A stretch of 64,000 nucleotides of DNA from Ostreococcus lucimarinus (taxonomy: Eukaryota). How positions within the stretch are numbered: the stretch's first letter is position 1; every line of letters starts with the position of its first letter. The DNA lies in assembly GCA_000092065.1 (NCBI GenBank), contig CP000584.1; one strand, 5' to 3'. The notes beneath the pieces were generated by a model that saw nothing but the letters and a program-made list of their open reading frames with translations, made no database searches and had not been told where the DNA came from. The translations under genes and the position numbers were made by a program. Shown in pieces: positions 24,894 to 64,000 of this stretch.

Positions 24894-26028
24894 ATGAAGT
24901 TCGGTCAGCTCTTCGCCGCGACGACGGCGTCGATGGCGCCGAACGTGCGAGAGCAGGTGCGCGACGCGAACGCGCGAGCGCCCGGAACGACGCGACGACG
25001 ACCGCGCGAACGACGACCGCAAAACGGGGCGACGGGCGATGGCGCGGTAGAATATTCCCAGCGCGCGACCGTCGCGGAGGGGGGGGGAGGGCGCGCGTCG
25101 CGCGCGTCGCGCGCTCTAAAGAGAGACAAGAATGCGCGCGAAGGATGCGCGCGAGGACGCCGCGAATGGGGACGGTTCGCGCGCGATGGTGGGCGTCGAG
25201 CGCGCGAAGACGGCGAACGGAGGGCGGCGAGACGCGCGAACGACTCGAGGGCGTTGACTGACGGATTCACGCGATGCACGCGCGCGGGAAGCGTAGTTTT
25301 TGGATTATAAACTCTTGAAACAGGTGTTAAAGACACTTCCGGAGAATAAGGGCGATGTGAAGCCCGCGACGGCGGGGGAGGTTCACGCGGGGGAGCGGGC
25401 ATTCGTGCAGGCGCTGTCCAACGAGTTGAAGAAGTTTAACGAGTTCTTCATGAACAGAGAGGAGGAAATCGTCATGAAGGAGGGTCATTTGCAGCAGTTA
25501 TTCGATCAGAACGAAGAGCGCATCGCGAGCGCGTTGAGCGCGGGGGTGTACGACGACGCGTGTTTGGCGGGAGACACGGGCATTTGCCAGAAATTTGCCA
25601 ACTTTCACGGAGAGCTCGTGTTGTTGGAGCACTGGACCAATTTAAACTACGCGGCTTTGGTGAAAATTTTGAAGAAGCACGATAAGCGATCGAGCTTGGC
25701 GCTGCGTTCTCCTTTCCTAGTCAACGTCCTGCAGCAGCCTTTCTACAGCACGGAGGTGCTCACGGCGATGATCGGTCGCGCCGAGGAGCGATTCCGCGCC
25801 ATCGAGCACAGGATTCGAGAATTCTTGGGCGAGCACGTCCCGCGCGCTGAGCTCGGGACATCGCCGCAGGTGCAACTGAGGGTATCATCGGACGGAAGCG
25901 AGATTAGCGACGACGACGACGACGCCTATTCCATCGAGCACACCAAAGCCGCTCTGAACTGCTGGCAAGGTTTGGACAAGAGCGAGGCTTTGCAAAACCC
26001 GCTCGGCACGCCTCACGACGTTCAGTGA
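24894..26028 (+). CDS. SPX domain protein (single-domain SPX, plant SPX1-4-like; two exons, intron ~24957..25296)
   Basis: Exon 1 encodes MKFGQLFAATTASMAPNVREQ, the canonical SPX start MKFG. Exon 2 begins FLDYKLLKQVLKTLPEN, matching plant SPX1 [33 protein letters not shown]. The rest of the SPX helices follow (LVLLEHWTNLNYAALVKILKKHDKRSS). Confidence 0.8.
24957..25296 (+). other. predicted spliceosomal intron of SPX gene (340 bp, GTGCGC...GCGTAG)
   Basis: The donor CAG|GTGCGC follows codon Q21 and the acceptor TAG is at 25294-25296. The spliced junction reproduces the conserved SPX N-terminal helix, and the intron is extremely GC-rich. Confidence 0.6.
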
Positions 26029-41041: not shown

Positions 41042-44000
41042 ATGGACGACCGCGCGGTGTTTAAAGATGGCACGAATGCGTCGCGTCGCCGAGGCGAGGA
41101 CGCCGTGGAAACGATGCGCGAGAAGCTGGAGAAGACATCCATCAAAGCGTTGCGAGCGTTGGAGGCGAAAGACGCGGAGATCGCGCGATTGCGCGCGGAG
41201 CTGCGGGCGCGCGAGCGAAGAGAAGGGGCGACGACGGCGTTTGAACGGCGAAGACGCGCTCGACGCGGAGGCGAAGACGAAGGTGAGATGAGCGATGAGG
41301 AGACGTTCGAGGACGAGGATCGGTATCGAAACGCGCGACGCGGTCGAACGTCGGCGTCGGCGTCGGCATCGGGCGCGCGCGTTGGGCAATTGGAACGGGA
41401 ATTGGAAGACGAACGCGCCGTCGTCATTCGTTTGAGGCGAGAGCTGCGCGAGGCAAACGGAAACGCGGAAAGGCTTCGAGAGTCGCACGAAGAAGCGAAG
41501 AAGTTTGCGTTGGCGAGCGAAAAACACGCGGGGGCGTTGACAGAACGAATGCAGCGCTTGGTGTGCGCGCGAGATGAGCGGTGGAGCGAGCGCGAGAATG
41601 CGGCGGATGCCTCGGAGAGAGCGTTGTCGGCTCGCGTCGCCGCGCTGACGGTCGAAAGCGCGCGCGCGAGCGAAGAAGGCGAGCGATGGCGGGTAAAGGC
41701 GCAAGATTTAGAAGAAGAATTACGCTCAATCAAGGCTGCCACGTTCGAAACCGAGATCTTGAATGAAGAGGAGGACGAAGACGCCGGCGCCGCAGAGTCG
41801 GCGCATCGATTGCGCGTTCGACTCGCCGAGACGCGTCTCGCGCTTCGCCAGGCGCTTGCCTCGGATAGCGCTGAAGCGAATACGATGGCATCATCGCAGA
41901 CCAGCGAGCAAATCGGTGATGCGCTCTCGATGATGTCGCAATCATCGAGGATGACAGCGACTAAGAGCGCGCGAGACAACGCCAAACTTGCCTCTGCTGA
42001 AGAGAAAATTTCTTCTCTCAAACGCGTCGTGAAGGAACTTAGAAGTACGAATAACTCGCAAGCGAACGAGCTCGGGCGATTGGAAATGCTATTGAGGGAA
42101 CAAATCGCGTCGAGCAAACTCACGCTAGAGTCCGCGGAGGCGACTTCTGAAAACGCGACACACGAACGGGAATACTTCACCAACACCTTGCGCGAACGCG
42201 AAGAAGAATTACTCGTCTTGAGAGACACTTTATCGGTATTAGAAAGTGATCGTTCGCCTGCGACAGCAGATGGTGATTGGCGGCGAGACGAAATGAATCG
42301 AGCGCGCGAGAAGATTATCGCCCTCGAGACTGAAAATGCGTCGCTCGTAAACGAGAGAGAGCTTCTCGCGGGCGAGGTGCGACAGTATCGCCACGAGCTC
42401 AAGGGTGAGTCGGAGCGCGCGGAGGCGTACGAGAGCATCGCCAAATCTGCGCGCCAGCGCGAAGAAATCTTGTTCGCACAACTCGAGTGGAAAACTGAAG
42501 AGTGCATCGCGTACATGGATGCGGAGCTTGAGCTGCTGAGTCGTTTAGACGACGCCGAGCGAGACAACTTGGATTTGGAAATCAGTCTCAAGTCGTGTGA
42601 GAAAGCGCTTCGACTGCAAGTCGAACGGTTGAGTCAATACAGCGCCACGCAGATCGGAGATTTGAAACGCAAAGTTCAACAGAGCGTGACGGATACCGTT
42701 TCAACAGACGCCGCGGCGAACTTTTGCCGCGGTATCCAAATCGCGCTGCGACAGACAGACGACGGGGAAACCACTGTCAATCAAAGACTTGAAGAAGCGC
42801 TCTTGGATGCGCAGCGCACGATTGCTCTGTTGGAGTGTACGTCTATTAAATACGAGAAGGCTTTTACTTCGGCTATGAGGCACGTGGAGAAGGCGGAACA
42901 TCGCAGCGAGTCGACAAAGACAGCGTTTGATCACGTGTGCGCCATTCTCGAACTTTCTCAAAAGTCGTACGCCTCTCTGAGCTCCAAGGCCATGAGTTCG
43001 TTGGAGAATCGACTCATGACGACGCACGCTCGCAACGTAAAGTTATCACAGATAATTGTGCGAGGCGAAACGGACACGGGCGTCGAGCTTAACGAAATGG
43101 AGGAGGAACTGCGCGATCGCGACGAAAAGATTGAATTAATGAAGGCGCGCATCGACGAGCTCGAAGTCACGGGAAGCGAACTCATTGGCGCTCGCGAGTC
43201 GGCTGCGAGCGCTATGCAAGCCATGTCGGTGGCCCGCGATAAGGCGAAGAAGGAAGTGTTCGAGGAGCAGGATCGCTTGCGCGAAGCCCAGCGCACGATT
43301 GCCGAACTTAACGCCCGCGTTGCGCAGCTTCACGAAGAATTTCGGGCGTCGATATTAGAAGATCAGGCGGACCAATTGCGCGCGTTAGTCGAAGAACAAG
43401 CGCAGACGATCGCATCGGCGTCTATGGAGCTAGAGAAACGAGTGAATGCGGAAACGCATGCGCAGGAGAGACTGGCAGAAATCACACGAGAGCTCGAAGC
43501 GACGCGTGAAAGCTTTGAGCGAGCGACTGCAGAGCTCGAAGAAGTACGGGAATCTCGCGCAAAGCTCGTCGAGCGGACAGATGGACAATCTGAACACCCT
43601 GATGTCGTGACAAAATTGAGCCAGCGCACATCCGAGCTCGAAAAAGCGATTGAGGTTCGAGACGATCGAATCAGAGAATTGGAAAAGTCGGCGCGCTTCG
43701 AGACGGCTTTGGCGACAAAGGGAACGACGGCGACGCTTGGTGCGAAAGTTGATCCTCACGATGCGGAAAGCTTAGTCACTGTCGCGCTCAAAGACAACCG
43801 AGCGGCTGCTGTCGTCGCAGCCGCTGCGCGTGACGAAGTCGATCGACTGAAGGAAGAAATCAGATGGCGTGATGACGCCTTGGCTGCCGTCGGCGCGTCG
43901 ACGACAAATGTCGCGATGGACGAATCCACGCGAACTGAACTCGAAAATATCAAGTCTCTTCTCGAAGGCGCGTTCAAGCAACACGAAGGACGGTTATCAG

Positions 44001-45163
44001 AAACCAATCGCTTGGTCGCGCGCGACACATCGACTTTGCAAGCATACGCCGAGGTAATGACGGCGAGGCTGCTCAACTTGGAAGCCGAAATCGCGGAACA
44101 AAAGCGAAAAGAAGAGGAATGGCAGGCGAGCAACATGCCGGGCGATGATGAGCGTCGCGCGCACGTGGAAAGATGTAAGCGCTACAGAGAGCTCATGCAA
44201 CGCCTGCGTCAGGAGCACGAACGCGAGCGAAATAAACTGTTGGAATTCGTCAAGGAGTCGGAAGCAAAGATTGCCGATTTGACCAGGCGCGTGCAGAGCA
44301 GCTGGGCAGGAGAATCCGAGGCTGAAGTCGCCAATCTCAACGCGCAGCTCGTGCGCGCAAATCAACGAATCGAAGAGCTCGAACGTCAGCTAAAAACCAA
44401 GCAACTCGCCGTCGACGCGACAGAAGGCGGTTTCACTTTGCTCACAGAAGTCGAATCCGCCGACGCAGAACTTCGAGACACCAGCGCCAAGCTCGCGACG
44501 AGCGTCGAAGAAGCCGCTCGACTTCGCGATGAACTCGAACAGTGCAAGACGCAAATCGAGTCGATGAGGGAAGAAACGAAGAAAGCTGTGGAGAAGCAGC
44601 TGACGACCCGATTCCGGCGCGAGCTGGCGAGACACGAAGATGAGATCGAGCGATTGCGCGAACGTTGCTCGGCGTTCGCACCGCCGTGCGCATCCCTGGT
44701 TGAGGCTGTGCGCAAGATGTCGATACGCTTGTTGCGTATGTCAGCCGCTGTGGCGCACATGTCGAGACAAGCCCAAGGCAAGCAGTCGATATCAGAAACC
44801 CTGATGGCGAAAGATGCGAACGAAGTTGCTTCTTTGGTCGGGTTGTCGCTCGAGGAAATCACCTCGGTGTTTGCAGTGCAAAACATTCGTTCCGACGGTT
44901 CCGCGGATGAAGCGAAAACGGCGCTGAGCATGTTGGATTCACCGGAAAATATCGCCGCTGCGATCGCGTGGTGCGAGGCGCGTACCTTGCAACTCAACGA
45001 CGCTTTGACATCGGAGGCTCCGATTGCCGAAGTCTGGAGAGACGATGCACTCGACGCCGTGACGTCGCTCGTGCACGATCAAGCGAGCGCGGCTGAGACG
45101 TGCCTTCGCGAGTCCACGCCCGAACTTCAACGCTGGTGGATGGGATTAGCTACTAGTGACTAG
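41042..45163 (+). CDS. large coiled-coil protein (1373 aa; structural/cytoskeletal-type, function unknown)
   Basis: E/R/A/L-rich heptad-like sequence runs almost the entire ORF (ELEDERAVVIRLRRELREANGNAERLRESHEEAKK...). No enzymatic motifs were found. Confidence 0.7.
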   Translation: MDDRAVFKDGTNASRRRGEDAVETMREKLEKTSIKALRALEAKDAEIARLRAELRARERREGATTAFERRRRARRGGEDEGEMSDEETFEDEDRYRNARRGRTSASASASGARVGQLERELEDERAVVIRLRRELREANGNAERLRESHEEAKKFALASEKHAGALTERMQRLVCARDERWSERENAADASERALSARVAALTVESARASEEGERWRVKAQDLEEELRSIKAATFETEILNEEEDEDAGAAESAHRLRVRLAETRLALRQALASDSAEANTMASSQTSEQIGDALSMMSQSSRMTATKSARDNAKLASAEEKISSLKRVVKELRSTNNSQANELGRLEMLLREQIASSKLTLESAEATSENATHEREYFTNTLREREEELLVLRDTLSVLESDRSPATADGDWRRDEMNRAREKIIALETENASLVNERELLAGEVRQYRHELKGESERAEAYESIAKSARQREEILFAQLEWKTEECIAYMDAELELLSRLDDAERDNLDLEISLKSCEKALRLQVERLSQYSATQIGDLKRKVQQSVTDTVSTDAAANFCRGIQIALRQTDDGETTVNQRLEEALLDAQRTIALLECTSIKYEKAFTSAMRHVEKAEHRSESTKTAFDHVCAILELSQKSYASLSSKAMSSLENRLMTTHARNVKLSQIIVRGETDTGVELNEMEEELRDRDEKIELMKARIDELEVTGSELIGARESAASAMQAMSVARDKAKKEVFEEQDRLREAQRTIAELNARVAQLHEEFRASILEDQADQLRALVEEQAQTIASASMELEKRVNAETHAQERLAEITRELEATRESFERATAELEEVRESRAKLVERTDGQSEHPDVVTKLSQRTSELEKAIEVRDDRIRELEKSARFETALATKGTTATLGAKVDPHDAESLVTVALKDNRAAAVVAAAARDEVDRLKEEIRWRDDALAAVGASTTNVAMDESTRTELENIKSLLEGAFKQHEGRLSETNRLVARDTSTLQAYAEVMTARLLNLEAEIAEQKRKEEEWQASNMPGDDERRAHVERCKRYRELMQRLRQEHERERNKLLEFVKESEAKIADLTRRVQSSWAGESEAEVANLNAQLVRANQRIEELERQLKTKQLAVDATEGGFTLLTEVESADAELRDTSAKLATSVEEAARLRDELEQCKTQIESMREETKKAVEKQLTTRFRRELARHEDEIERLRERCSAFAPPCASLVEAVRKMSIRLLRMSAAVAHMSRQAQGKQSISETLMAKDANEVASLVGLSLEEITSVFAVQNIRSDGSADEAKTALSMLDSPENIAAAIAWCEARTLQLNDALTSEAPIAEVWRDDALDAVTSLVHDQASAAETCLRESTPELQRWWMGLATSD

Positions 45164-45197
45164 GGAATGTATTATTTTCACTATTTTCACTATTTTC

Positions 45198-45688
45198 CTA
45201 CGCTAATTTTCCCGCCTTCTGTAGCGCGATGCGTGCCTCGACCCGCGCCTTCGCGATTTGTGAATTTATCGCCGCCTGTCGCGCCTCGTCCGCTGGCGGT
45301 GGGGCCACGACGGGTTGTTGCGGACCAGCGCTGTGAAACGAGATTCCGTTTCGCTTGGCGAGGTACTTCTCCGTGACCCGCTTCTGTTCATCAGCGAGCG
45401 CACGAGCGAAATCTTCCTCCTCCACTGGCGATTCGTCAAACGCAAATTTTGCCCCAGTGGCGAACGCGTCGCTCGCCGACACTCCATCTCGCGCGCAGGT
45501 CTCCATGAACTCTGGGTTCCTAAAAGTCGATGACGTGAACATCAACGCGCTCGGCGTCACGCCTCGTCGTCTCGCGACGATTAAGAGGTCGTTCACTCTC
45601 TGTTGCGTCGCCTTCGTCTCCTCGCTCGTCTCGCTCGTCTCGCTCGTCGTCGCCCCGTATCTCGCCGCGATCGCCGCCACCCACGCGT

Positions 45689-45774
<86 letters not shown>

Positions 45775-45962
45775 CGATCATCGACGTTCACCCTCGTCGT
45801 CATCGCCGTCGGTCGCGCCGGTCCCACGAACGCATCCTCGCCGTCGCTCGTCGCTTCGTCCGCCGTCTGCCGCGCCGATCCAGCGCGCGCCGGTCCCACG
45901 AAGCCACCGTCGTCGCCGTCGCCGTCGTCGCTGCTTCCGTACTCTCCCACGAACGCGTCCAT
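45198..45962 (-). CDS. HCNGP-like / SAP30-binding-protein-like transcriptional regulator
   Basis: Asp/Gly-rich acidic repeats ((DDGDDGDDDDDG)x2) are followed by TKATQQRVNDLLIVARRRGVTPSALMFTSSTFRNPEFMETCARDG. This matches the HCNGP core (KLQEKIQKLYERKIKEG...KDFRNPSIYEKL). The start is at internal ATG 45962 of ORF 45198..46847. Confidence 0.55.
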
Positions 45963-46519
45963 CGTCGCGATGGGACGGCGCGACGCGTCGGCGGCGTTCG
46001 TCCGAGTGTCGCGGCGCGAACGCGCGACGCGCGAACAAAGGGTCGCGGATATTTTGGTTTTTCGAAAATTCGAATGGATGCGATCAAATCTACGTATACG
46101 GTGTGTAAAAAACGCCATCACGAGTGGATAGGGTTCTGCATCCAAATCTTTAAATCGCGCGGCGCAGCTGTCGACGTTTTGGCGCGCAAGATGACGGATG
46201 AGTTTCGACGCCGCGCCGCACACCTCGCCGCTCGACGAGGTTATAAATCTAAATCTCGAGCGAAACGAACTGCATCGATTCGATCGTGTTCCGCGCGAGC
46301 ATCGCGTCGTCATCCGCGCTTGAGGGAGCGCGCACGGACAACGCGCGCGCGAACGGCGTCGAACGAATTCGCTTGTTCCCCCGATCTCGACACATCGCCG
46401 ATCGCGCGCATCGGCGACGTCGATTTCGAGCGCGTCGCGGGAGTGTTCGGTGACGAACGCGCGCGTGGACGTGAGAACGAACGTCGTTCGTTCACCGCGA
46501 GCGGCGCTCGCGCGAAGGC

Positions 46520-49500
46520 ATGGCTGGGAAACGCGCGACGCCGGTAAAAGATGCGTCGAAAAACAAACCGAAAACGACGCCGGTGAAGAAGTCGACGATG
46601 AAGGCGCCGCGGGACGGGGCGTCGGCGCCGAATTCGCCGGCGGGGCGTGGAACGCCGCGACGAGCGACGGCGAATAAGGCAACAGAAAGAATGAAGGAAA
46701 TGGCTGTGAAGACGGAGGACATGGATGAGGACTACGCGTTCGACGGGGATGACGATTACGCCGCGGCGCCGAGCGCGCCGGCGAGCGGGCGCACGACGCC
46801 GAAGAAGTACAGAGCGCGCGTCGTGGGAGGATCAGCACCGCCGACACCGATGAGCAAGAGGTACGCTAGTAGTGGTTCTTTGATTTTATCTCCGTTGCGC
46901 GCGTGAACAGGACGGCGCGGATGAGAGAAAAGGGGAATCGCGATCAGGGCGCCCGCGGGTGCCCGCGACGCGTTTCCCGCCCGAACTGCGTCGCCGACGG
47001 CAAACGCGCGCCTCACGCGACGTTGACGCGCTTCGGGCGCGTTGAAATCGCGCGTATACATGGATGACTGACGAATATTTTTTCACCTCTTGTTTCATTT
47101 TTAACAGATCTCCGGGTGGTTCTCCGCGCAAGAGCGGAGACAGCGACAGCGGCGCGAGCGGCAACCCGAGAACGCAACTCGCGGAGCATTTGCCCGTGAT
47201 TGCGGATATCGGTGGTATGTTTGCCGATCTTGTTAGTCGTGTTCCGGGCATGGAGAACTTCTTGACGGCGATGAAGCGCCCGTTACGCGTCGCGACGATG
47301 TGCTCTGGCACGGAGTCGCCGCTTCTCGCACTCGACAAGATTGGGGACGCCACGGAAAAACTCTATGGTACGCGTCTCGCCGTCGACCACGTGTTCTCGT
47401 GCGAGATCGAACCGTTCAAGCAAGCATACATCGAGCGTAACTTCGCGCCGCCAATCCTCTTTCGCGATATTCGCGAATTAGGCGGCGACCAGGCGACGAC
47501 GGCTTACGGCGCGAAAATCAACGTGCCGCACGACGTCGACATGCTCGTCGCGGGTACTTCTTGTGTCGATTACTCCAACTTGAACAACGAGCGTAAGGGT
47601 CTCGAGGCACAAGGGGAGTCTGGTCAAACGTTCCGCGGGATGATGAACTGGATCAGAAAGAGCCAACCACCGATCATCATCTTGGAGAACGTGTGCAACG
47701 CGCCGTGGGATCAAGTGCAGAAGAAGTTTGAAGACGAGGGCTACCACGCGCGTTTCATGCGCGTGGACACGAAGCGGTTCTACATTCCGCACACGCGTAC
47801 GCGTGTGTACTTGTTTGCGTGCAAAGCGAGCGATGCATCGCTCGTCGAAGCGTGGAAGGGTATGGTAAAGTCGCTCGAGCGACCGGCGAGCGCGACGCTC
47901 GAAGCATTCCTCTTCGACGCCGACGATCCTCGTGTACACGAAGGTCGACGTATGTTGGCTCGCCCGGGTGAAGATTCGACGCGCGCAAACACTGACTGGG
48001 GACGGTGCGAATCTCGTCATCAACGCGCACGCTTGGAGGAAGGTTTGGGTCAGCGTCGCCCGTTCACGCATTGGGATGGCGGTTGCACGCTCCCCGACTT
48101 TGCATGGAACGACTGGGGTAAGGCTCAGACCGACCGCGTGCTTGACTTGATGGACATCGACTATTTACGCCTTGCGCAACTTGATATTGATTCCATGCAC
48201 AAGACTTTGGTTTGGAACCTCTCTCAAAACGTCGATCGTACCACCGGCTCGGTCGCTCCGGGAATTTGCCCGTGCCTGACGCCATCGATGGTGCCGTTCG
48301 TCACCAACCGTGGTGGTCCTCTCGTCGGCATTGAAGCTCTGAGCTTACAAGGGATTCCGGTCGATGACTTGTTGTTGACCCGTGAAAGCGAGAACCAAAT
48401 GAGCGATTTAGCCGGCAACGCGATGACGACGACCGTCGTCGGCGCTTGCATGCTCGCCGCGATGACTCTCATGACGGACAACCTCGCCGCAAAGAAGCAC
48501 AAGACGGCTCGACGCGCTTTACTGCTTGACGATGATTCCAAGGAGAGCTCGCAAACTATGCAAGGCTCGCTGACAGTCGTTCAAGCTGCTGCGGCTAAGA
48601 AGACGGAGGTCGTCGGGCAAGACAAGTTGGTGAAGCGTCCCCTCGATCTCGGCATGAAGCCAGTCGGGATGAAGGAGCTCCTCAGCAAGGCGAACAGATC
48701 TGCGCGTTTGTGCGTGTGCGAAGGTGAAACTGGCACCACTGATGCGGATTCTCTCGTCATTTGCCGTGACTGCTCTCACACGTGCTGTATCAAGTGCTGC
48801 GGGCGACCCGAACACAACTACGAGAAGCACGTCGTCGATCGCATCTTGCCGGAGGATTTCAAAGAAGACTTGAAAAACTCTCTGCCGATGCACATGAAGT
48901 TGGATGTGAGCTCGGCCAAGTTTACGAAACCGAAAGAACTTCTTGGTAAAGTGTGGGACGACTGGATGGACGCGATCAAGGCTATTGGGGAAGCTGATTT
49001 CTTGTTCCGAGGCATGAAGCGAACCAACGTCTGGCGCGTGTATTACTCGTGCGCTTCTGAGGACAAAGTACGCTTGGAATTGCGCATCGCTCCTAACGCG
49101 GCCGAGTGGTTGATCTTCGTTGATCCTTCCATCAAGAAGGGCAAACCGGAGGAGTTCCATGAACGCCCGTTGATGCGTATGCTCTTGGACAAGTCGGCGA
49201 AGAGCGTCTTGGACGGCACGTGGGAGTTCTTCTCGCCAGAGTACGCCGCGGTGCCGGTTATTCTTGAAGGTAAGGGCGAACTCGAAGATTCTTGGCAGAT
49301 CAAGCTCGGTATGTTGACCAACAGCAAGCTGAACGGTGACGTGAATTGGCCGGAGGAACGTTGGACTCAGTACGAAGTTAAGCTGAAAGATCCGAAGAAC
49401 GCGACAGAGTTTGATCGCAGCATCACCGGCACCTACCAGCTTTATGACAAATGCGACGCCGCTCAAAGTTCATTGCACAAGCGCATTGGTGGCCCGCAAA

Positions 49501-52500
49501 ATGGTCGCGAAATGTACTTCTTCATGGACCCCAGACGTAACCAAAAGGGTGAATTTGACTACTTCGTGTTTGCGGATAACCATCGTCGTTTGATGTATGG
49601 TGAAGACCGCATGGAGACGGCGCACTTGGATTTCCGAAACCTTGGACAGCCTCCTTCGGGAGATCGTTTCCGTCCGAGTGATAAGAAGGTTGTCGAACAC
49701 ATGGCTCACACGTTTGGAAAATGGACTGCTCTGCCGCAAAAGGTTGCCCTCATGCCCGCCGTCGTCCAAAACGCCGTCGTGTTGACGCCGCCGGTGAACG
49801 CCGTCCCGACTCAAGGCGAGGACTCGTGCTCGAAGGCGGTTGCCATCATGCGTTGCTCCGTTCCTTTGTCTAGCGTTGATGTCGATTTGTGGCCCGAGAA
49901 TGGATACACGACTGTGCGTCTTGACAAGAGTCATGCTACCTTCCAACGCCTCGAGTGGTTCACGTCTCGCATGGAACTTCCGAAGGTTGTGGAGAAGTGG
50001 AACCAGCTCAGCGACGATCACGCGTTGTCGTGCGATAAATTCGCTTGCTCGCGATGTGCGCCGACGCCGCCGACTCTTTTGTGGAGCCGACAAGTCGGTT
50101 CGCAAAAGATTCAAGCCCGTGAAGATCCGTTGCAGGCATCCAAATATGAACAAGCGCTCAAGTGTCGACCCGAGCCATTCGTCGTGCAATGGACTCGCGA
50201 GAAGACGACGGGCAACTTGATGATTGCTGGTAACCCAGCTACGCTCGTTCATCGTGCTCTTGCGCTTGTCGCTCCGTCTGGTGTTCGAGGCATCGAATCA
50301 AAGGCGCCGCATATGTCGTGGAGAATCGTTCGACACGACGACCGCCCGATGGACAACTTTGGGGAGTTTGAATTGAAGAGCAACCGTCACGACAAGCAAG
50401 TTGCGCAACCGCCGAACTGGAGCAAGAAGTACCCACTTCGCCCAGAACAACTGCGCTCGCTTGGGTGGATGGTTCAGCAAGAGATCAACGAAACGCCGTT
50501 CGTGGAAGAGGAAATTTGTGAAAAACTTCTTCCGGCTTTGGGCCTTCGCATGGATGGCAAGGCGGAAGTCTCAAAGGTGATTCGCGGCGGCATCGTGGCC
50601 GATCAAGTTGGTTACGGGAAAACGGCCATCTCCATCGGGGTCATCTTGGCGAACCAGCTCAAGTTCCCGACGCCCAAGCAAGCTAAAGTTGATGCTCCGG
50701 TCAAAGCGATTCCGACCAAGGCAACGCTTGTCATCGCGCCGTCTCAGTTGCTCCGCCAATGGCCGAGAGAGGTTGAGAAGTTCAGCGCGAGAGGTTCTTT
50801 GAACACGGTCGTTCTCAAGACAATGTCTGATCTCAACTCTTTGACGGCGCGAGAGGTCATGGAAGCAGATGTTGTCATCGTCGCTACGACTCTCTTCAGA
50901 TCTTCGCTGTACTTTGAGCGTCTCGCGCAACTCGCCGGTCGACCTTCTCTTCCGGATCCGAAATCTTCGAGCCAAGCGCGCCACTTCACGAGCGTGTACA
51001 AGGACACTGTGGCGAGCCTCGAAGACCAAGTCATGCGATTGACCGATAAGAAACTTGGTGTCGCTGAGGTTGCCAAACACGTTCGTTGTGGCACTTCTAC
51101 GCTCAGCGACGTCGCCGTCACAGCGGCGCCCAAACGTCTCAAGGGCGCAAAGCTCATCGAAATGACCGAAAAGGCTGGCGGCGAAGGTTACGAGTTCGTC
51201 GAGGCCTTGCACAAGGAACGCCAGCAGGCTTTGGACAAGGAGAATGTTCAAAAACCGATCAATGTTGAGCCGACAAGTGCTCCGGTCACGCCGTCCAAGC
51301 CTAAGAAGACGCCGACGAAGAAGACGCCGACGAAGAAGACGCCGACGAAGAAGACGCCGACGAAGAAGACGCCGACGAAGAAGACGCCGACGAAGAAGAC
51401 GCCGATGAAGTCACCGATCCGCGCGTCTGCGCGAAACACGCCGCGTAAGTCATACGCTGAAGATGATAGCATGGAAACTGATGATGAGATCTCTGATTGG
51501 GATGACGATGAATCGCTGGATGGCAGTGAAAGCGAGGAATTCGTCAAGGAAAAGTCGACGCCGAAGCGTAAGCGCATCGTTAAGCAACGAAGCATGGAAA
51601 TTGACGCCGATGGCAATAAAGATCATTGGGGTCTCGAAAGCGCTCAAGCTGAGTACGACTGGCGTGACATCAAGTCTGTTCCTGTCGAGCTATTCCACTG
51701 GCGCCGCGTCATCGTCGATGAGTTTACATACTTGAAGCCGTCCGATAAGGCCGTCGTCATGGGACTTCAATCTGAATCCCGTTGGTGCTTGTCTGGTACT
51801 CCGCCGGTGGGCGACTTTGCCGACATCAAGGGTACCGCTGCTTTACTCGGTATCAACCTCGGCAGCGACGAAGTTCCGCGCTATAACAAGTCGGAAATCA
51901 CGAAGGTGGAGACGTTCCAATTCTTTAAGGAGAAGCCGACACAACAATGGCACAAGCGAAGATGGGAGGTGGCGCAAGGCTTTTTGAACCGTTACATGCG
52001 ACAAAACATTGCTGAAATCGATGAGATCAAGTTCAAAGAAGATGTGTGTGATGTTCAACTTCGACCAGCTGAGCGTGCTATCTACCTTGAGCTCGATCAC
52101 TACTTGCAATCCATGGACATGAAGGCGAAGAAGAAGAAGCGAGGCGCGTCTGAGAGTGACCGCGACGCCCGTCTCGCTGCCGTCCTCGGCAACTCTTCTT
52201 CCGCAGAAGAAGCACTTCTGAAGCGCGTGGCGCACTTCGAATTGGATGACGAAGCGGGAACTGCGCTTCGAACTTGCCAAGACATCGTGAACGTTCGCAA
52301 GACTCAACAAGAAGATTGCTTGAAGGAATTCGGTGAAGCCATTCTCAAGGCGCGCGCCATGTTGTCGCAAATGTCTCAGATGCCTGACTTTACTCCGGAA
52401 GACAATCCGTTCATCCGATGGGAGAACGGCGTTCAAGGCGAAGGTATCGGTGACCCCACAGCGAGCGAACTTCTCAAGGGCGTTCTCAAGGAGCAAACCG

Positions 52501-53624
52501 AAGCCAAGGCTGCTAAGACCGCGCACCTCTTGCAAACGCGCCCGCCCGTCGGATCGACCATCGCGGTGTTTTCTGTTGAAGAGCAAGAATGGATTGAAGG
52601 TGAAGTTCGCGGTTATAGTGGTCAGTGGAAGCAAAAAGCTTCCGTCTACTACGACGCCAAGACTCGTAAGGATGAAGATTTGACCAAGGTTGACTGGAAG
52701 GTGGTCAAGGCTGTTGAAGGCGAGCCGAGCTCCACGATGGACTCTGGGAAATCCGTATCCATGAAGAAGACGAAGACGGCATCCCTCGACGATAAGCTCT
52801 GGGAGCTGCGAGAGCATACGCACGGTCTCCGCAAGTTGCAAAAAGAGCTTGTCGGTCGAGTGCGCTCTTTGCGCTTCTTCCAGTCTGTTCGTGACTTGCA
52901 ACAAGCCAAGATGGACGATTCGGTCAAGTGCGAAGCGTGCTCGAAGAAGTTTGCCAAGTCAAAGTCTGGCGTCCTATCTACGTGCGGCCATATTGGTTGC
53001 GTCACCTGCCTCAAGGTCAACGCCGAGAACCAAGAGTGTGGCGTGAAGAACTGCGATTGCGCTACTCGTGACACGTCCGTCGTGACCGCGGTCTCTCTTG
53101 GCACCGAGGCCAGCGCGGACTCCAAGTCTATCAAGACTGATGGTGGCGTCGGCGTGCACGGTTCAAAGATCATCGACATCGTCGCTCACATCAAGTCCAT
53201 CCCGGATGACGAACGAATCCTGGTCTTCGTGCAATTTCCTGACTTGATGCAACAAGTGAGCTCCGCGCTCAACGAAGCTGGTATCAAAACGCTCAAGCTC
53301 AAGGGCTCGGTGCATCAACAAACGGGCGCGCTCGACGAGTTCCAAAAAGAAAACTTGAAGAAGGATGATGCTCGCGTTCTCTTGCTTTTGAGCCGAGACG
53401 AAAGTGCGTCTGGAGCCAACTTGACGACGGCTAACCACGCCATCTTCGTTCACCCCTTGCTCACGAACACTGCTCAGGAGTACATCGCCAGCGAGACGCA
53501 AGCCATCGGTCGCATCCGCCGCTACGGGCAACAGCGCGAAGTGCGCATCTGGCGCTTCATCGCTCGCGATTCCGTCGACTCTGAAATCTTGAGTCAGCGC
53601 GCCGCTGGCTTGATGCAGAACTAA
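46520..53624 (+). CDS. DNMT5: DNA (cytosine-5)-methyltransferase DNMT5: C5-MTase + RING finger + SNF2-family ATPase; proposed 2-exon model with basic S/TPKK N-terminal exon (46520..46860), intron 46861..47107
   Basis: MTase motifs are I MCSGTES, IV AGTSCVDYS, VI IIILENVCNAP, VIII IPHTRTRVYLFA and IX/X GNAMTTTVV. The SNF2 ATPase has GIVADQVGYGKT, IVDEFTYL and helicase-C motifs (LLLSRDESASGANLT, QAIGRIRRYGQQREV). The RING finger is CEACSKKF...CGHIGCVTCL. Exon 1 (MAGKRATPVKDASKNKPKTTPVKK...TPKKY...PPTPMSK) ends AG|GTACGC. The acceptor cttgtttcatttttaacag| is a textbook pyrimidine tract; phase 2+1 recreates an Arg codon and total length is divisible by 3. The ORF-track M at 47064 lies inside the intron. 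Confidence 0.85.
51304..51408. repeat. in-frame 15-bp tandem repeat x7 (aagaagacgccgacg; encodes KKTPT x7) inside DNMT5 linker
   Basis: Six perfect copies and one variant (…gccgatg) sit between the MTase and SNF2 regions. The array continues the basic Thr/Pro/Lys theme of the proposed N-terminal exon. Confidence 0.9.
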
Positions 53625-53795
53625 TAACAGACTAGATGCGCTTCTTACTTTACTATTACTGCAACCGCAAAGAAACACCCTCATATTGACGACAGGAGGT
53701 GGTCTGATCCCTCTCAAGTCTGCCAGTTGTCGCCAACACACATATATGACGATTTGTAACGTGTTTTACATACAACTATATCACCTAATGACGCT

Positions 53796-54710
53796 CTAAT
53801 ACCAACGCGTCGTCGTTTTCATGAACCAAGCATCTCGTGCAGTTTCGGTGCTTCGAAGCTGCGCGTAGAGCGGTAGTTGGTCTTCAAGAACTTTCCTCGT
53901 CGCTCCGCGGCGTCGATCAACGCGCGGAGTTGGCGCCGAAGATGGATCTTGACTCAACTTTATCTTCGCCAACTGTGAACGCAGGCGCTCAGTTTCTTTC
54001 GTCTTCTTCTCGAGTTCGATGGTCAGGCGTTCGTTGCGCGATTTTTCGCGCGCCAACGCCCCTCGAAGCTCCTGAATTTCTCGCTCTTTCGCGTTTGCTT
54101 TCGAACGCCGCTCTTCGCTTTCAACCGCTGTCGCGTTCTTTGTCGCCGTCGTTCGCGCAGCATCGGCGCGACGTCGTGCCCAAAATAACGCCATATCTAA
54201 ATCAAACGAGACCGGCGCTAGCGCTCCCGGATCGTGCGCGCCATCTTCATCGTCTCGCCGATCGCCGGCTCTGCCTTTGGCCCTGGCGCCCGCTTCCTCA
54301 TTCAAGTCACCGGGGAACGAGGACGTCGACAGTTCGTCGTCGAATTGCGCGTATTTTTCCAGTCGCACCTCTTGTAGGTGTTTAGACACCCGCGATGCCA
54401 TCTTCTTCGCGTACTCCTCTTCGCTCAGTGCGTATTTTCTTCTTCTCTGTTCGGCCTCGATGTCCAAAGCGCTCACCCACGGCGGTCGCGCGTCGCCGCC
54501 GTCATCGCCACCTCCATCGGTCGACGATGATGATGCGTACTCATCGTACTCATCACCGTCTTCCCGCATCGCGTCGCTCGCGAGGTCGTCCCACACAGCG
54601 CGAGGTCCCATCGCGAGGCGACACCGAACCGCGCGACGTCGTCTGTCGCGGCGTGATTCAAACGTCGATGTTCCAGATTTCAGGGCGTCCTCAGGTTGTA
54701 AAACCCTCAC
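53796..54710 (-). CDS. hypothetical protein with acidic region and C-terminal coiled coil
   Basis: The 304-aa ORF has a C-terminal coiled coil (ESEERRSKANAKEREIQELRGALAREKSRNERLTIELEKKTKETERLRSQLAKIK). An internal Met at 54611 is an alternative start. No homology was recognised. Confidence 0.45.
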   Translation of the reverse strand: MRVLQPEDALKSGTSTFESRRDRRRRAVRCRLAMGPRAVWDDLASDAMREDGDEYDEYASSSSTDGGGDDGGDARPPWVSALDIEAEQRRRKYALSEEEYAKKMASRVSKHLQEVRLEKYAQFDDELSTSSFPGDLNEEAGARAKGRAGDRRDDEDGAHDPGALAPVSFDLDMALFWARRRADAARTTATKNATAVESEERRSKANAKEREIQELRGALAREKSRNERLTIELEKKTKETERLRSQLAKIKLSQDPSSAPTPRVDRRRGATRKVLEDQLPLYAQLRSTETARDAWFMKTTTRWY

Positions 54711-54911
54711 GATTTTTATGATTTATTTCTTGATCCCACATACTATAAATACTGTCTTTAAAGTGCCGTCGCTTCGGGTTTTTGGTCGATCCGAAGCGTC
54801 ACGAACGTTGCCGTCGACACGCTGGTGGTGGTTGACCGTCGCGGCGGCAGAGTGACACACGTCGTCGTTCAAGCATCGCATCGCGCGGAATTTCGAGTGA
54901 ACGCTTTCCTC

Positions 54912-56327
54912 ATGCTCTCTCGTGCGTTCGCCGCCGACAAAGATCGTCACGCGGTGGCGGCGAACGCGCGCGATGACGATCACTCGCCTTCGGTGCCGAC
55001 TGGATTAATGACGCCTTTGCGGAGCGACGAAGACGTTGCGTGCGCGAGGGACGCGGATATTTCGGCGAGCAGTGCGAGTGGAACGCCGACGTCGAAGTGC
55101 TTCGTGCACGCGCCCGCGGACTCCCCGAACGGGACACCGCAAGAAAACCGAAAAGCCGTGCTGGCGCGCATGGAGCTCGTCCAGCGCTGGCCCACGCGAG
55201 TGGAGTTGTCCGCGGCGGAACAAAACCGTGCAGAGATGTTTTCGCGCTCGTACGAGGACGAAGACGATGGATTCATGCTTGCCGAGCGACGAAATGAAGC
55301 GTCGACGGTGCGTCGCACGCTGCAAGCGTCGCAATCGCTGAGTTCGATGCCACGCATCGATTCCAAGCCGCCGCTGGCGCCAAAACCGACGCTGTCGCGC
55401 GCCAGAGCGTACGCTTCGGAGGCAGATTTGAGCAAACTGGTCGACACTCATGACGAAGGGCCCGTGTCTTTCGGGCCTAGTGTTGCGTTAATGCTCGTCG
55501 ATATCCAACCCGTGTATTGGAGCTTGGCGCCAGAGGTGCAGGCGGCTTTCCCCACGTTTCCTGAAAATGTTTCGCATCTACTCGCCTCGGCGCGAGATGC
55601 GGGCTCGCACGTCGTCCACGTGAAAGCTTCATACACGTATGACACGTGTCCGTGGCTGAAGAACTTCCAGCGATTGAACCCAGGTCGACGCGCATACGAG
55701 ATCGATCCGTCCGAGGTGGAGGAGTTTGCGCAACCGCGCGAGGGCGAAACCATCGTCGACAAGGACACCTTTGGCGCCTTCATCCACGCGCCAGATCTCG
55801 CAGTGCGACTGCGCGAAGCTGGTGTGAAGACGATCGTATTCGCTGGGCTCATCACGTCTGTTTGCGTGCAACATTCTGTTTTCAGCGCCTTTAACGCTGG
55901 TTTCCGAGTCGTCGTCGCGCACGACGCGTGCGGCGATCGCTCTCGCGCTCGTCACGAAGCCGCATTGATGCTTTACGGCAACTACATGTATGATGTCGCA
56001 TCGACGAGCGAGTTAGTGCAAGAAACCGTGGAAGCGAAGAAACGAGAAGAAGTAGAATCTTCTTACAAATCCACGGCCGCACCGTCGGTTGTTCAAAAAC
56101 CGCCCCGACCGCTCGCCATCGCGAAACCGACGGCGGTGCACGAATCAAATGTCGCCGATTTGAAGTCCAAGCGATATCTTGTCGCCTCCAAATACGGTGG
56201 CTCACCGGTAAGCAACCTTGGGGTGTCGTTGTCTCAAATTTCTCTCGTCGATTACGTCGACAAGCGCGGCGCCCGAGGCGGCCTGTCACCTGTCAGCGCG
56301 CTAGATCTTGATAACGCGTCGCTCTAG
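54912..56327 (+). CDS. isochorismatase-family cysteine hydrolase domain protein with N- and C-terminal extensions
   Basis: The core VALMLVDIQPVYWS...VVHVKASY...DKDTFGAFIH...KTIVFAGLITSVCVQHSVFSAFNAGFRVVVAHDACGD has the Asp-Lys-Cys triad arrangement. The first ATG is at 54912; the ORF opens at a TTG at 54825. Confidence 0.75.
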   Translation: MLSRAFAADKDRHAVAANARDDDHSPSVPTGLMTPLRSDEDVACARDADISASSASGTPTSKCFVHAPADSPNGTPQENRKAVLARMELVQRWPTRVELSAAEQNRAEMFSRSYEDEDDGFMLAERRNEASTVRRTLQASQSLSSMPRIDSKPPLAPKPTLSRARAYASEADLSKLVDTHDEGPVSFGPSVALMLVDIQPVYWSLAPEVQAAFPTFPENVSHLLASARDAGSHVVHVKASYTYDTCPWLKNFQRLNPGRRAYEIDPSEVEEFAQPREGETIVDKDTFGAFIHAPDLAVRLREAGVKTIVFAGLITSVCVQHSVFSAFNAGFRVVVAHDACGDRSRARHEAALMLYGNYMYDVASTSELVQETVEAKKREEVESSYKSTAAPSVVQKPPRPLAIAKPTAVHESNVADLKSKRYLVASKYGGSPVSNLGVSLSQISLVDYVDKRGARGGLSPVSALDLDNASL

Positions 56328-57443: not shown

Positions 57444-59576
57444 TCAAGACGTCCTTCTCCACGCGCGGTCCGCCTCGCTCGGCGACGCCTCGTCGTCGAG
57501 CAAAACTTGTTGATCGTCGTCTCGACGCATTTGCCCGCGTTCGAGCCAGTCGATGTCGTCGTCATCCTTCAGGATACTCACTCGGGGTCCACGTGCCGCT
57601 TGAGATTCGCCACCAAAGTACTTCGGGTCGTAGAACAACGACGTACACAGCGCGATGAACTCAAACACCGAAAAGAGAGGCGTCAAGACAATCGTCAACA
57701 CAAATAGGATGTTGTAATATATTGCGCCGGACACGACACCTTGCGATAAATCGGCGACGGACGCGCTCTTGTAAAACCCAATGGCATACTTGAATGTCAC
57801 ACAAGCGGTGATGAAACCAACGATGCAAGAGACTGCAAACGTGTCCGCGCCGCTCGAACGCAAACACCAAGGAGCGAAAGCGCTGAGCACGGGAGCGATG
57901 GTCGAGAAGCCCGCGCTCACGCACGCAAGCGTTAAAGAAGCGCGATGCGAGTGATCGAGCGCACTCTCGTCGCGCATCAAAACCAGCGCACTATGGTGAT
58001 CTCGCGCTCGAAGTTTAAACAATTTCCAGACGTTGCTCGTCGGTATCGGCACGTGAACGCCCGCATCCAACCAGGAGAACTTGACGCCGTTGTTTGAACA
58101 TCGCAACGCGAAAGCCGTGAGCTCAAAGCCGTCGTGCACGTCCATGTCGGCGAACCCAACTGCGAGCTCGAGTTCGTTTGGAACTACTAAATATGTGTTC
58201 GGAATCGGAGCGACGACGCGCGAGTGCTTCGCATACATCATTCGTAACGCACCGTACGATTCGCCTGCGCGGATGCACTCTGCCATGGCTGGGATCCATT
58301 GAAACACGCTTTCGACGCCATCGATGAAGGAATTCGATGTTCGAGTGATTCCAGGAAGCACCGCACCTTGCGCGAGCCGGCGCACGTGTGTGTCCCCACG
58401 CCCAGACAAAGCCGCGAGACGTGTTTCTCGCGCGCAGTGTGCGAGCACGGCATCAACCGCTCGCACGTTCAGCAACGAATCCGATCCTAAATGCACCACC
58501 CAGTCTCCCCATGTCGCCGAACTTGCACGCGTGGCGAAGTTCAACAACCCGCTGCTTCCTTGAACTTTGTAATTCATCTCCAATGGAACCACAAGCTCGC
58601 TGACGCACGACGACGACACGCCAATCTCTTTTGTCGTCACCACTTCGATTTCAAACAACGTCGTCGGTATTGCGCGTTGCAGAATATCCACCGCCACGTC
58701 CACAGCGCGCTTCACTGCAAGTGGCTTCGCGTCACGTGATATGTGGAATCTAAAGTAAATTTTTCCGCCTAGCTCCTCCAATAGCTTTGAACGGTCGGGA
58801 TAAGCCTCTAACCACACCGGCGGCCAGGTGAGGTACGCCGTGACGTGAGCGACGGCTGAAGGAATCGCTATGAAGCTCGCGACCGAAATAATCATCCAAA
58901 CCACGTTTTCTAATGCATTTAACTCCAACACTTCCCCAGTTGGATTGAGGTAGGCGCCGAGCGCAGTGACGATGACGAACGCGAAGACTAGCGCCATGAA
59001 GGAAGCGTACAAGCAGAACAGGCGACACAAAAGTGTGAAGGTCACCGGTTTATATGCTCGGCGCTCCGCCTTCCGACGCAGGGCTTCTTTCGATGACTTG
59101 CCCGAGGCACTTTTCTTTCGCCCTCGTTCGGTTGCATCCCCTGAGCGGCGAGTACTCGCTCCGCTCCGACGAGACCTCGTACCGTGCGACGAAGCGGGCT
59201 TCTTCACACCACTCAGTAAACCTGTGGTGATCGCCGCGTCCTGACCCCTTGCGAGTGTTTCTGCGGCATCTTCGAATGCATCCGCGTCTTCGCCGTCATC
59301 ATCTGAATCGCTCGCGTCACCCGCGCGCATGTCGCCGTCGTCCTCTACGTCGGTGACGTACGCGTCCGAACTCGTCGTCGACGGCTCGTCGTCATCGAAA
59401 CCACTCGCCGCGAGCGCGCGCGTGAGATCATCTGGTTCATCTCCGGGTAATCGTACGCCATCATTCTCTCTCCCCGGTAAAACCGCTCGCCAGCTCGGGT
59501 CGTTTTGATTGAGCGCCATCGCTGCTTGCGTCAAGGAGGACGGCGATCTTCCCTCGCGTCGTCCGTGTTGGCGCAC
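57444..59576 (-). CDS. multi-pass membrane protein with central glycosyltransferase-like (GT2/egghead-type?) domain
   Basis: The 710-aa protein has an S/R/K-rich N-tail, an N-terminal TM, a ~300-aa central soluble domain and 3-4 C-terminal TM helices. This is the topology of membrane GT2 enzymes. Catalytic motifs were not identified confidently. Confidence 0.55.
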   Translation of the reverse strand: MRQHGRREGRSPSSLTQAAMALNQNDPSWRAVLPGRENDGVRLPGDEPDDLTRALAASGFDDDEPSTTSSDAYVTDVEDDGDMRAGDASDSDDDGEDADAFEDAAETLARGQDAAITTGLLSGVKKPASSHGTRSRRSGASTRRSGDATERGRKKSASGKSSKEALRRKAERRAYKPVTFTLLCRLFCLYASFMALVFAFVIVTALGAYLNPTGEVLELNALENVVWMIISVASFIAIPSAVAHVTAYLTWPPVWLEAYPDRSKLLEELGGKIYFRFHISRDAKPLAVKRAVDVAVDILQRAIPTTLFEIEVVTTKEIGVSSSCVSELVVPLEMNYKVQGSSGLLNFATRASSATWGDWVVHLGSDSLLNVRAVDAVLAHCARETRLAALSGRGDTHVRRLAQGAVLPGITRTSNSFIDGVESVFQWIPAMAECIRAGESYGALRMMYAKHSRVVAPIPNTYLVVPNELELAVGFADMDVHDGFELTAFALRCSNNGVKFSWLDAGVHVPIPTSNVWKLFKLRARDHHSALVLMRDESALDHSHRASLTLACVSAGFSTIAPVLSAFAPWCLRSSGADTFAVSCIVGFITACVTFKYAIGFYKSASVADLSQGVVSGAIYYNILFVLTIVLTPLFSVFEFIALCTSLFYDPKYFGGESQAARGPRVSILKDDDDIDWLERGQMRRDDDQQVLLDDEASPSEADRAWRRTS

Positions 59577-59750
59577 CGAGGGCGACGACGGCGACGCTTG
59601 CGTCTGCGTCTACTTCTCCGTCGTTTTCGTCGTCGCCGTCGATTCCGTTTACACCGCCGCGCCCGCCACGCGACGGGACGCGTCTCACTGTGCGGATTTC
59701 GTTTAGTGTTGAACGGCTTACGACGTGAGAGCGCGGCGCGCGCGGGGGCG

Positions 59751-63842: not shown

Positions 63843-64000
63843 TAGGGTTTAGGGTTTCGGTTTAGGGTTTAGGGTTTAGGGTTTAGGGTTTAGGGTTTAG
63901 GGTTTAGGGTTTAGGGTTTAGGGTTTAGGGTTTAGGGTTTAGGGTTTAGGGTTTAGGGTTTAGGGTTTAGGGTTTAGGGTTTAGGGTTTAGGGTTTAGGG
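63843..64000 (+). repeat. telomere: (TTTAGGG)n, G-rich strand 5'->3' toward window end (right chromosome terminus)
   Basis: The array starts with TAGGGTTTAGGGTTTCGG and then has more than 19 perfect TTTAGGG units to the last base. Its orientation is correct for a physical chromosome end. Confidence 0.95.

Follow-up and report, generated by a model that had tools for sequence, protein, structure and literature searches.

The 64,000-nt stretch of the Ostreococcus lucimarinus genome analyzed here (the window; GenBank assembly GCA_000092065.1, contig CP000584.1) very probably carries the single-copy DNMT5 gene of this alga, a DNMT5a-type gene lying 10 kb from a telomere, whose product would, by homology, work much like the DNMT5 of Cryptococcus neoformans (CnDNMT5). 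The identity of the locus, its architecture, the conservation of each named functional residue and its coding continuity are all shown by the present analysis. Published surveys already list O. lucimarinus as having DNMT5 and lacking DNMT1 (PMC5082852; the eLife CDCA7-HELLS paper, PMC10538959/bioRxiv; PMC9861306). In fact, the DNMT5 of this species is a founding example of the family, so that the central result, though right, is not new. A revised gene model, a predicted Tudor-fold insert, a probable conserved N-terminal exon and arrays of [ST]Px[KR] motifs were not found in the literature searched; these are modest refinements, and their practical value lies in a corrected gene structure.

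The gene contains an uninterrupted open reading frame (ORF) of 2186 codons at 47064..53624 on the plus strand, the strand on which all of the gene features described below are located. Its product was 100% identical, in three blocks, to its best database match, "predicted protein" P0002 of O. lucimarinus CCE9901. Full-length orthologs of 2135–2452 aa were found in every Mamiellales clade, with identities of 75–86% in other Ostreococcus clades, 57% in a Bathycoccus-like clade and 48–50% in Micromonas, followed by basidiomycete, chytrid and stramenopile proteins at 39–45%. When the whole protein was compared with solved structures, it matched CnDNMT5 (7r76_A) at 1353 bits (E = 0), the alignment running collinearly through query residues 39–1295, 1525–1787 and 1903–2183. 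Although 7r76 was deposited as "DNA repair protein Rad8", it is the cryo-electron microscopy structure of C. neoformans DNMT5 (bioRxiv 10.1101/2021.10.01.462825).

Family placement was decided by ranking the Protein Data Bank (PDB) matches of the C5 cytosine methyltransferase (MTase) domain alone. In that ranking CnDNMT5 (4e-170) was the best by far, followed by M.HhaI (0.008) and DNMT3B (0.25), and no DNMT1 chain appeared even at E ≤ 10; the MTase therefore belongs to DNMT5. Placements with DNMT1 and with Dim-2, the examples given when a different MTase family was raised as a check on the original prediction, were rejected on this basis, in a PDB comparison that included no Dim-2 structure. 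DNMT1 is nevertheless a functional analogue, being a CG maintenance MTase that prefers hemimethylated DNA. No sequence relationship between the two could be detected beyond the generic MTase fold, and DNMT5 differs in being ATP-dependent and, at this locus, in having no RFTS, CXXC or BAH domain that Pfam could find in the ORF. Taken with the structural and database matches, the ranking bears out the earlier identification of a DNMT5-type protein combining a C5-MTase, a RING and an SNF2 ATPase. The profile search suggested along with it was also run, and yielded Pfam matches to DNA_methylase (60.7 bits), SNF2-rel_dom (75.1 bits) and Helicase_C (27.5 bits).

Database names invite a different reading, in which the locus would encode a Rad5/Rad8-type DNA-repair SNF2-RING protein with a degenerate, inactive MTase-like domain. 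Homologs are indeed called "DNA repair protein rad8/RAD5", and the C-terminal RING and Helicase_C region matches yeast Rad5 (6l8n, E = 2.6e-12, aa 1941–2177), with which it shares a C3HC4 RING placed between the helicase lobes. This reading is extremely improbable, as the PDB record named "Rad8" turns out to be the structure of a DNMT5, the motifs for catalysis and for binding S-adenosylmethionine (SAM) are intact and invariant, and no HIRAN domain was found in the ORF by Pfam. Moreover, the Ser-for-Pro replacement in motif IV is a functional feature of the family (bioRxiv 10.1101/2021.10.01.462825; PMC9998398). The algal protein also differs from Rad5 in being fused to a C5-MTase, and in its characterized homolog what the ATPase remodels is the MTase of the same enzyme, not DNA or nucleosomes (bioRxiv 10.1101/2021.10.01.462825). 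A pseudogene was rejected as well, since the catalytic and SAM-binding motifs are intact and invariant across an alignment of 31 DNMT5s, the set used for all conservation counts given here.

The MTase domain, consisting of the catalytic region and the target recognition domain (TRD), spans 47298..48440 (aa 79–459 in ORF numbering, used throughout) and matches Pfam PF00145 well above the cutoff of 22 bits. Of the motifs named in the original prediction, motif I (MCSGTES) was located at aa 79–85, motif IV in its TSC form (GTSC) at aa 164–167 (47553–47564) and ENV at aa 208–210; RTRVY and GNAM follow at aa 245–249 and 451–454. In motif IV a Ser replaces the Pro of PCQ next to the catalytic Cys167, and this Ser-Cys pair occurs in all 29 of the non-gap DNMT5 sequences. 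The functional residues of CnDNMT5 have been named in the structure paper (bioRxiv 10.1101/2021.10.01.462825), and they could be located here through the 7r76 alignment, the index of the PDB chain being the native numbering minus 29. Ser166 and Cys167 correspond to S439 and C440 of the fungal enzyme and are identical, as are Asn174 of the catalytic loop (N447) and Trp312 (W590) of the allosteric loop and Arg318 (R596). The flip-out loop, WNLSQNVDRT at 48213–48242, includes Asn385, Ser387, Gln388 and Asn389, which are identical to N665, S667, Q668 and N669 and invariant in 31/31.

The SNF2 ATPase is equally well conserved. The first part of lobe 1 (50448..50948, aa 1129–1295) was recognized by both the SNF2-rel_dom profile and the 7r76 alignment, and carries a Walker A motif, GYGKT (50610–50624, aa 1183–1187), that is invariant in all 31 sequences and includes the conserved Lys1186. 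Lobe 1 continues, together with the start of the helical domain, at 51636..52424 (aa 1525–1787, aligned to residues 1669–1947 of the 7r76 chain), where motif II (DEFT, 51717–51728, aa 1552–1555) and motif III (SGTP, 51792–51803) are found. The DEFT sequence had been taken for a variant of the DExH box. That description does not hold, because CnDNMT5 is identical at this site (Asp1552 and Glu1553 being D1725 and E1726) and all 31 sequences keep the D, E and T, making DEFT the norm for the family. The RecA2 portion of lobe 2 (53190..53528, aa 2043–2155; PF00271) is accompanied by motif VI, QAIGRIRRYGQ (53499–53531, aa 2146–2156), in which Arg2150, Arg2153 and Tyr2154 are identical to R2265, R2268 and Y2269 of the fungus and invariant in 31/31.

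Two putative zinc modules, both with conserved ligands, accompany these domains. RING1 (48711..48815, aa 550–584; CVCEG...CRDCSHTCCIKCCGRPEH) comes after the MTase and before the ATPase, aligns to RING1 of CnDNMT5 and follows the pattern C-x-C...C-x2-C-x-H-x2-C-x2-C...H, its candidate ligands (C550, C552, C567, C570, H572, C575, C578 and H584) being kept in 26–31 of the 31 DNMT5s. RING2, of the C3HC4 kind (52929..53060, aa 1956–1999), sits between the helical domain and RecA2 and aligns to both CnDNMT5 RING2 and Rad5 6l8n. Its candidate ligands C1956, C1959, C1974, H1976, C1979, C1982, C1992 and C1997 are kept in 29–31 of 31, and the zf-RING_5 profile of Pfam reached 21.4 bits at aa 1955–1997, below its 27.9 cutoff. 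It had been proposed that a RING and then an ATPase come after the MTase. Both are present, but the C3HC4 RING is inside SNF2 lobe 2 rather than ahead of the ATPase, and RING1 had been missed. The order MTase, RING1, alpha/beta region, RecA1, helical domain, RING2 and RecA2 is thus collinear with C. neoformans DNMT5 (7r76/7r77/7r78/7t02, DNMT5a) over nearly its full length, and the catalytic Ser-Cys, the hemimethyl-CpG flip-out loop, Walker A, DEFT and motif VI are the same in both enzymes.

Transferred by homology from the C. neoformans enzyme, a mechanism can be outlined in which the TRD's flip-out loop would read hemimethylated CpG, with the Ser387 backbone touching 5-methylcytosine, Asn389 leaving the methyl pocket and Gln388 reading the orphan guanine. 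This reading would free the Rad5/16-like SNF2 ATPase from its autoinhibited state, and ATP binding would then close the two RecA lobes and remodel the MTase. Following remodeling, the Ser166-Cys167 catalytic loop would insert, SAM would bind and the unmethylated strand would be methylated. The net role of such an enzyme would therefore be to copy CG methylation after replication. CnDNMT5 is ATP-dependent and specific for hemimethylated CpG according to the reports on it (bioRxiv 10.1101/2020.01.05.895227, 10.1101/149385, 10.1101/2021.10.01.462825). Such activity has been established for the C. neoformans enzyme only; for the O. lucimarinus protein we infer it by analogy, together with the enzymatic specificity and in vivo role more generally. 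The word "maintenance" in the original prediction thus agrees with the conserved functional residues; the biochemistry behind it belongs to the fungal enzyme and would apply here by extension.

Work on Mamiellales provides the biological setting. As cited in later papers, Huff & Zilberman 2014 described dense CG methylation in the nucleosome linkers of these algae, and DNMT5 has been proposed as the CG maintenance enzyme of Mamiellales, which, O. lucimarinus included, are without DNMT1 (PMC5082852; eLife CDCA7-HELLS paper, PMC10538959; PMC9861306). It had been claimed that the presence of DNMT5 itself implies methylation of nucleosome linkers. The gene alone is insufficient for that conclusion, because in the fungal and diatom cases the main target of DNMT5 is sequence rich in transposons (bioRxiv 10.1101/149385; PMC9998398); for Mamiellales, the claim holds by virtue of published experiment. 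The composition of the window fits the reported linker methylation. Its CpG observed/expected (O/E) ratio is 1.67 over positions 1–63840 and 1.74 in the first 26 kb, and the density of CG shows excess power at periods of ~158–195 bp. Power at 155–200 bp was 1.65 times that of a chunk-shuffle null (z = 5.7), a level reached in 0/200 shuffles.

Three observations weigh against so simple an account. First, Q673 of CnDNMT5 is a Thr in O. lucimarinus, but Thr is the majority residue (28/31) and the fungus is the outlier. Second, GC, TA and AT dinucleotides show the ~180 bp periodicity as well, which is therefore a compositional signal on the scale of the nucleosome rather than a measurement of methylation. 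Third, pure maintenance does not explain how methylation is set up or how it is kept to linkers.

Comparison of five Mamiellales loci, namely the window, two diverged Ostreococcus loci (L001 and L002), a Bathycoccus-like locus (L004) and a Micromonas locus (L005), suggests that the gene begins upstream of the ORF. A small ORF at 46520–46906 contains what is probably exon 1 of DNMT5 (46520..46860, 113 codons plus 2 nt), which is not in the public model. It would encode a disordered tail of basic and acidic residues with four [ST]Px[KR] sites and a conserved R-x-T-P-[RK]-R-x-A-A-x-x-A-x-x-x-M motif. A probable intron of 247 nt follows (46861..47107), with the donor GTACGC, the branch-point-like sequence GATGACTGAC, a T-rich tract and the acceptor AACAG. 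The probable exon 2, at 47108..53624, comprises the body of DNMT5 to the stop codon and is the source of the matches to 7r76 and P0002 described above. On this comparative evidence, the coding sequence (CDS) would be join(46520..46860, 47108..53624), encoding 2285 aa, an assignment that we consider probable; most likely it contains no further introns. Residue numbers in the 2285-aa protein are those of the ORF plus 99. The coordinates originally proposed for the gene, 47108–53624, are sound at their end, which is the stop codon. Their start is out of frame with ATG 47064 and is instead the first base of the probable exon 2.

Several features of the five loci support splicing. Exon 1 has 68–72% aa identity to L001 and L002 with only in-frame indels, and its conservation stops at "...PTPMSK(R)", exactly where a GT donor is located (GTACGC, GTGCGT or GTGAGT by species). 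Conservation of DNMT5 then starts right after a pyrimidine tract and a CAG/TAG acceptor, ahead of "[ST]PGG[ST]PRKS". In the interval, nucleotide identity between Ostreococcus clades is 38–50%, with gap runs that are not in threes, and the only conserved elements are the donor, the acceptor and GATGACTRAC, common to the Ostreococcus loci ~35 nt 5′ of the acceptor. GC content falls to 0.37–0.40 at 47060–47119. The same exon 1 layout occurs in L004 and L005, complete with the R-x-T-P-[RK]-R-x-A-A..A...M motif and an acidic patch of the DDAFD type. Exon 1 lengths in the five loci are 341, 332, 323, 572 and 455 nt, or 2 mod 3 in 5/5, and the intron lengths are 247, 229, 221, 139 and 348 nt, or 1, 1, 2, 1 and 0 mod 3. 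The spliced CDS is nonetheless open in 5/5, and the other Mamiellales genes would share a phase-2 intron after exon 1.

The public model starts within this probable intron, at ATG 47064, and it could be argued that this start is correct, that the upstream ORF is a small gene of its own, and that the splice signals and reading frame agree by coincidence. The in-frame ATG lies inside the branch-point-like GATGACTRAC in 3/3 Ostreococcus loci, which might make the motif a conserved start context, and gene callers do list the upstream ORF separately, though these callers have no splicing model. Such an arrangement seems unlikely. It would have to accommodate upstream conservation whose limit coincides with a GT donor in each of five loci from three genera, DNMT5 conservation that begins exactly after a (Y)n-CAG acceptor, and, between ATG 47064 and the acceptor, 44 nt that are T-rich and GC-poor and encode residues unconserved between species. 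It would also leave to chance an exon 1 of 2 mod 3 in all five loci alongside introns in every residue class, with the frame open after splicing each time.

The public model also departs from the ORF internally. At 2017 aa, it equals the ORF minus aa 1340–1435 (51081–51368) and aa 1808–1880 (52485–52703), segments of 288 and 219 nt that are both multiples of 3 and stop-free. Substitutions were counted by codon position against the two diverged Ostreococcus loci. For aa 1340–1435, positions 1/2/3 had 12/8/37 substitutions versus L001 and 15/13/46 versus L002, and for aa 1808–1880 the counts were 13/11/43 and 10/2/34. The flanking exons show the same third-position bias, and every indel keeps the frame; both of the public "introns" are therefore coding by this test. 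It is very improbable that the 2017-aa model is right, that 51081–51368 and 52485–52703 are real introns, and that the protein is without the Tudor-like segment and some of the KKTPT array (both described below). Admittedly, GT...AG boundaries can be drawn for both segments, and the Micromonas pusilla CCMP1545 model P0018 is likewise without the corresponding regions. Set against this are not only the length, openness, codon-position bias and in-frame indels of the segments but also the peptides themselves, which are conserved across genera; one of them is predicted to form a Tudor barrel, and its profile is homologous to those of Tudor domains. With both segments retained, the public model apparently lacks ~99 N-terminal and 169 internal residues, including a folded Tudor-like domain. 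Domain surveys based on it, or on the similar M. pusilla model, would miss a potential chromatin-reading module in the very lineage where DNMT5 methylation has been linked to nucleosome positioning.

That module is an insert of ~60 residues in ATPase lobe 2 (52542..52715, aa ~1827–1884), which overlaps the public "intron" at 52485–52703. The segment that holds it does not align to CnDNMT5 and occurs in all of the ORF-called Mamiellales orthologs; the insert was absent from those fungal, stramenopile and other non-Mamiellales DNMT5s that were aligned, and thus appears to be specific to Mamiellales. AlphaFold2, given an alignment of 17 sequences, predicted a helix followed by five strands (model residues 21–26, 31–41, 47–51, 57–61 and 67–71) with a mean predicted local distance difference test (pLDDT) score of 80.2. 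Foldseek returned a list dominated by Tudor domains, with 7de9 at the top in both searches. At the level of profiles, an hmmsearch of 1.8 billion representatives matched a multi-Tudor protein, P0129, at 1e-11, in a region overlapping its Pfam Tudor_3, Tudor_5 and Agenet domains, and hhalign gave this pairing 94.7% (E = 5.8e-8). Direct Pfam scans of the insert produced only sub-threshold matches (BAHCC1-like Tudor, 0.051; WYL_2, 0.11), and the best match in a profile search of the PDB, RDM15, was non-significant (E = 0.69). Most of the strong profile matches, made up of 10–30 partial stretches, were to repetitive proteins of SH3-like half-barrels and were discounted as evidence. As modeled, the predicted fold of the insert is a Tudor fold, that is, a five-stranded SH3-like barrel.

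The single Tudor of Arabidopsis RDM15 (PDS5C-type; 7de9) reads H3K4me1 through a pocket of W616, Y623, Y641, D643 and D645 (PMC8184781), positions that read S, I, Y, A and T in O. lucimarinus; the pocket is complete, as W/F/Y/D/D, only in the Ostreococcus clade of P0006. The location differs too, the algal domain being inside the ATPase and the RDM15 domain C-terminal. Within the insert, only S, G, P and Q residues are invariant or nearly so. With neither the pocket nor an aromatic cage conserved, a reader function for H3K4me1 or methyl-lysine was set aside as unsupported in O. lucimarinus.

A second lineage-variable region interrupts RecA1 (50949..51635, aa 1296–1524). It is unaligned to CnDNMT5 and consists of a basic array of [ST]Px[KR] sites with an acidic run behind it. 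Of the 12 [ST]Px[KR] sites in the ORF, 11 are in aa 1409–1502 (the cluster at 51288–51569), and seven of these derive from a 15-bp tandem repeat encoding KKTPT x 7 (51303–51410). A metagenomic sequence with 99% identity, P0001, has one KKTPT unit fewer (6 vs 7). The RecA1 insertion has 3–11 such sites in the ORF-called orthologs of Mamiellales and 0–1 in other DNMT5s. The [ST]Px[KR] sequence is both the consensus of cyclin-dependent kinases (CDKs) and the SPKK-type motif by which linker histones bind the minor groove of DNA.

Compared with C. neoformans DNMT5, then, the O. lucimarinus protein has no N-terminal chromodomain (Pfam found no PF00385 match in the ORF or exon 1), a domain that fungal members have but that does not define the family. 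In its stead is a short, basic tail with [ST]Px[KR] sites, probably from a separate 5′ exon. It also has a different RecA1 insertion, with the KKTPT array, and a Tudor-fold lobe-2 insert that the fungus lacks. Chromodomains do occur in the chytrid homologs P0022, P0072 and P0119. Other Mamiellales DNMT5s, in Micromonas and Bathycoccus, have the same architecture, with the Tudor-fold insert and [ST]Px[KR] clusters, and differ only quantitatively, in their 50–57% identity, the longer inserts of Micromonas and a variable KKTPT copy number.

We raise, as a tentative proposal, that the DNMT5 of Mamiellales may represent an architectural subtype of its own, hidden so far by public models. In it, three lineage-specific modules would stand in for the fungal chromodomain: the basic tail of the 5′ exon, the RecA1 [ST]Px[KR] array and a Tudor-fold domain of lobe 2 by the DNA cleft. 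These might couple the enzyme to chromatin or the cell cycle and help explain the confinement of methylation to nucleosome linkers in these picoalgae. The Mamiellales enzyme might conceivably not be a pure maintenance copier at all. The Tudor-fold insert or the [ST]Px[KR] tails could target or gate it on chromatin, for example through contact with a histone mark or with linker DNA, or through CDK phosphorylation that limits activity to S phase, and so make it specific for linkers and perhaps give it a degree of de novo activity. We regard this as a minority view. In its favor, neither the insert nor the [ST]Px[KR] clusters occur outside the DNMT5s of Mamiellales, the lineage with reported linker methylation, and the motif has the dual character noted above. 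The targeting chromodomain of fungi is absent here, and the insert is in the region of the helical domain, which lines the DNA cleft in CnDNMT5 (bioRxiv 10.1101/2021.10.01.462825). Its closest structural relative, moreover, is an H3K4me1 reader of a plant DNA-methylation pathway (PMC8184781). Telling against it are the substituted RDM15-type pocket, complete only in the P0006 clade, and the scarcity of (near-)invariant residues, which argues against a conserved methyl-lysine cage. Linker methylation is also said to occur outside Mamiellales, where the aligned DNMT5s have no insert, which would mean that the insert is not its general cause. A maintenance enzyme of the CnDNMT5 kind remains the preferred reading. 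Should the insert or the arrays prove functional, they would open to experiment the question of how methylation is directed to linkers.

The surroundings of the gene agree with the prediction that it is near a chromosome end. A plant-type telomere repeat, (TTTAGGG)n, occupies 63843..64000 on the plus strand with 22.7 copies, starting 10.2 kb past the DNMT5 stop codon and running to the end of the window; 100 shuffles gave no matches. A scan for promoters and terminators of the bacterial type gave nothing useful in the window and is irrelevant to a eukaryote. The ORFs around DNMT5 are unremarkable, encoding coiled-coil, HCNGP-like, isochorismatase-family and Methyltransf_16 lysine methyltransferase proteins. 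The gene order at 41042–56327 (a long coiled-coil ORF, HCNGP-like on the minus strand, exon 1 and DNMT5) is kept in the Ostreococcus clade of L002 and L003. HCNGP is next to DNMT5 in Micromonas (L005) too, and in L001 the two are separated by genes for a P-type ATPase and a carbonic-anhydrase-like protein.

Farther from DNMT5, GC content is 0.64 at 1–26000 versus 0.57 at 26001–63800, and Tandem Repeats Finder showed the first 26 kb to be full of short, imperfect, CG-rich tandem repeats of the CGACGCG type. A 1553-aa ORF at 29006–33667 on the plus strand joins an FSH1 serine hydrolase to AMP-binding, AMP-binding_C and an Acyltransf_3 membrane acyltransferase, an unusual fusion. Between DNMT5 and the telomere, ORFs of 710 aa (57444–59576, minus strand) and 1327 aa (59505–63488, plus strand) had no Pfam match, and in the related locus L001 an ORF of 1314 aa is similarly placed.

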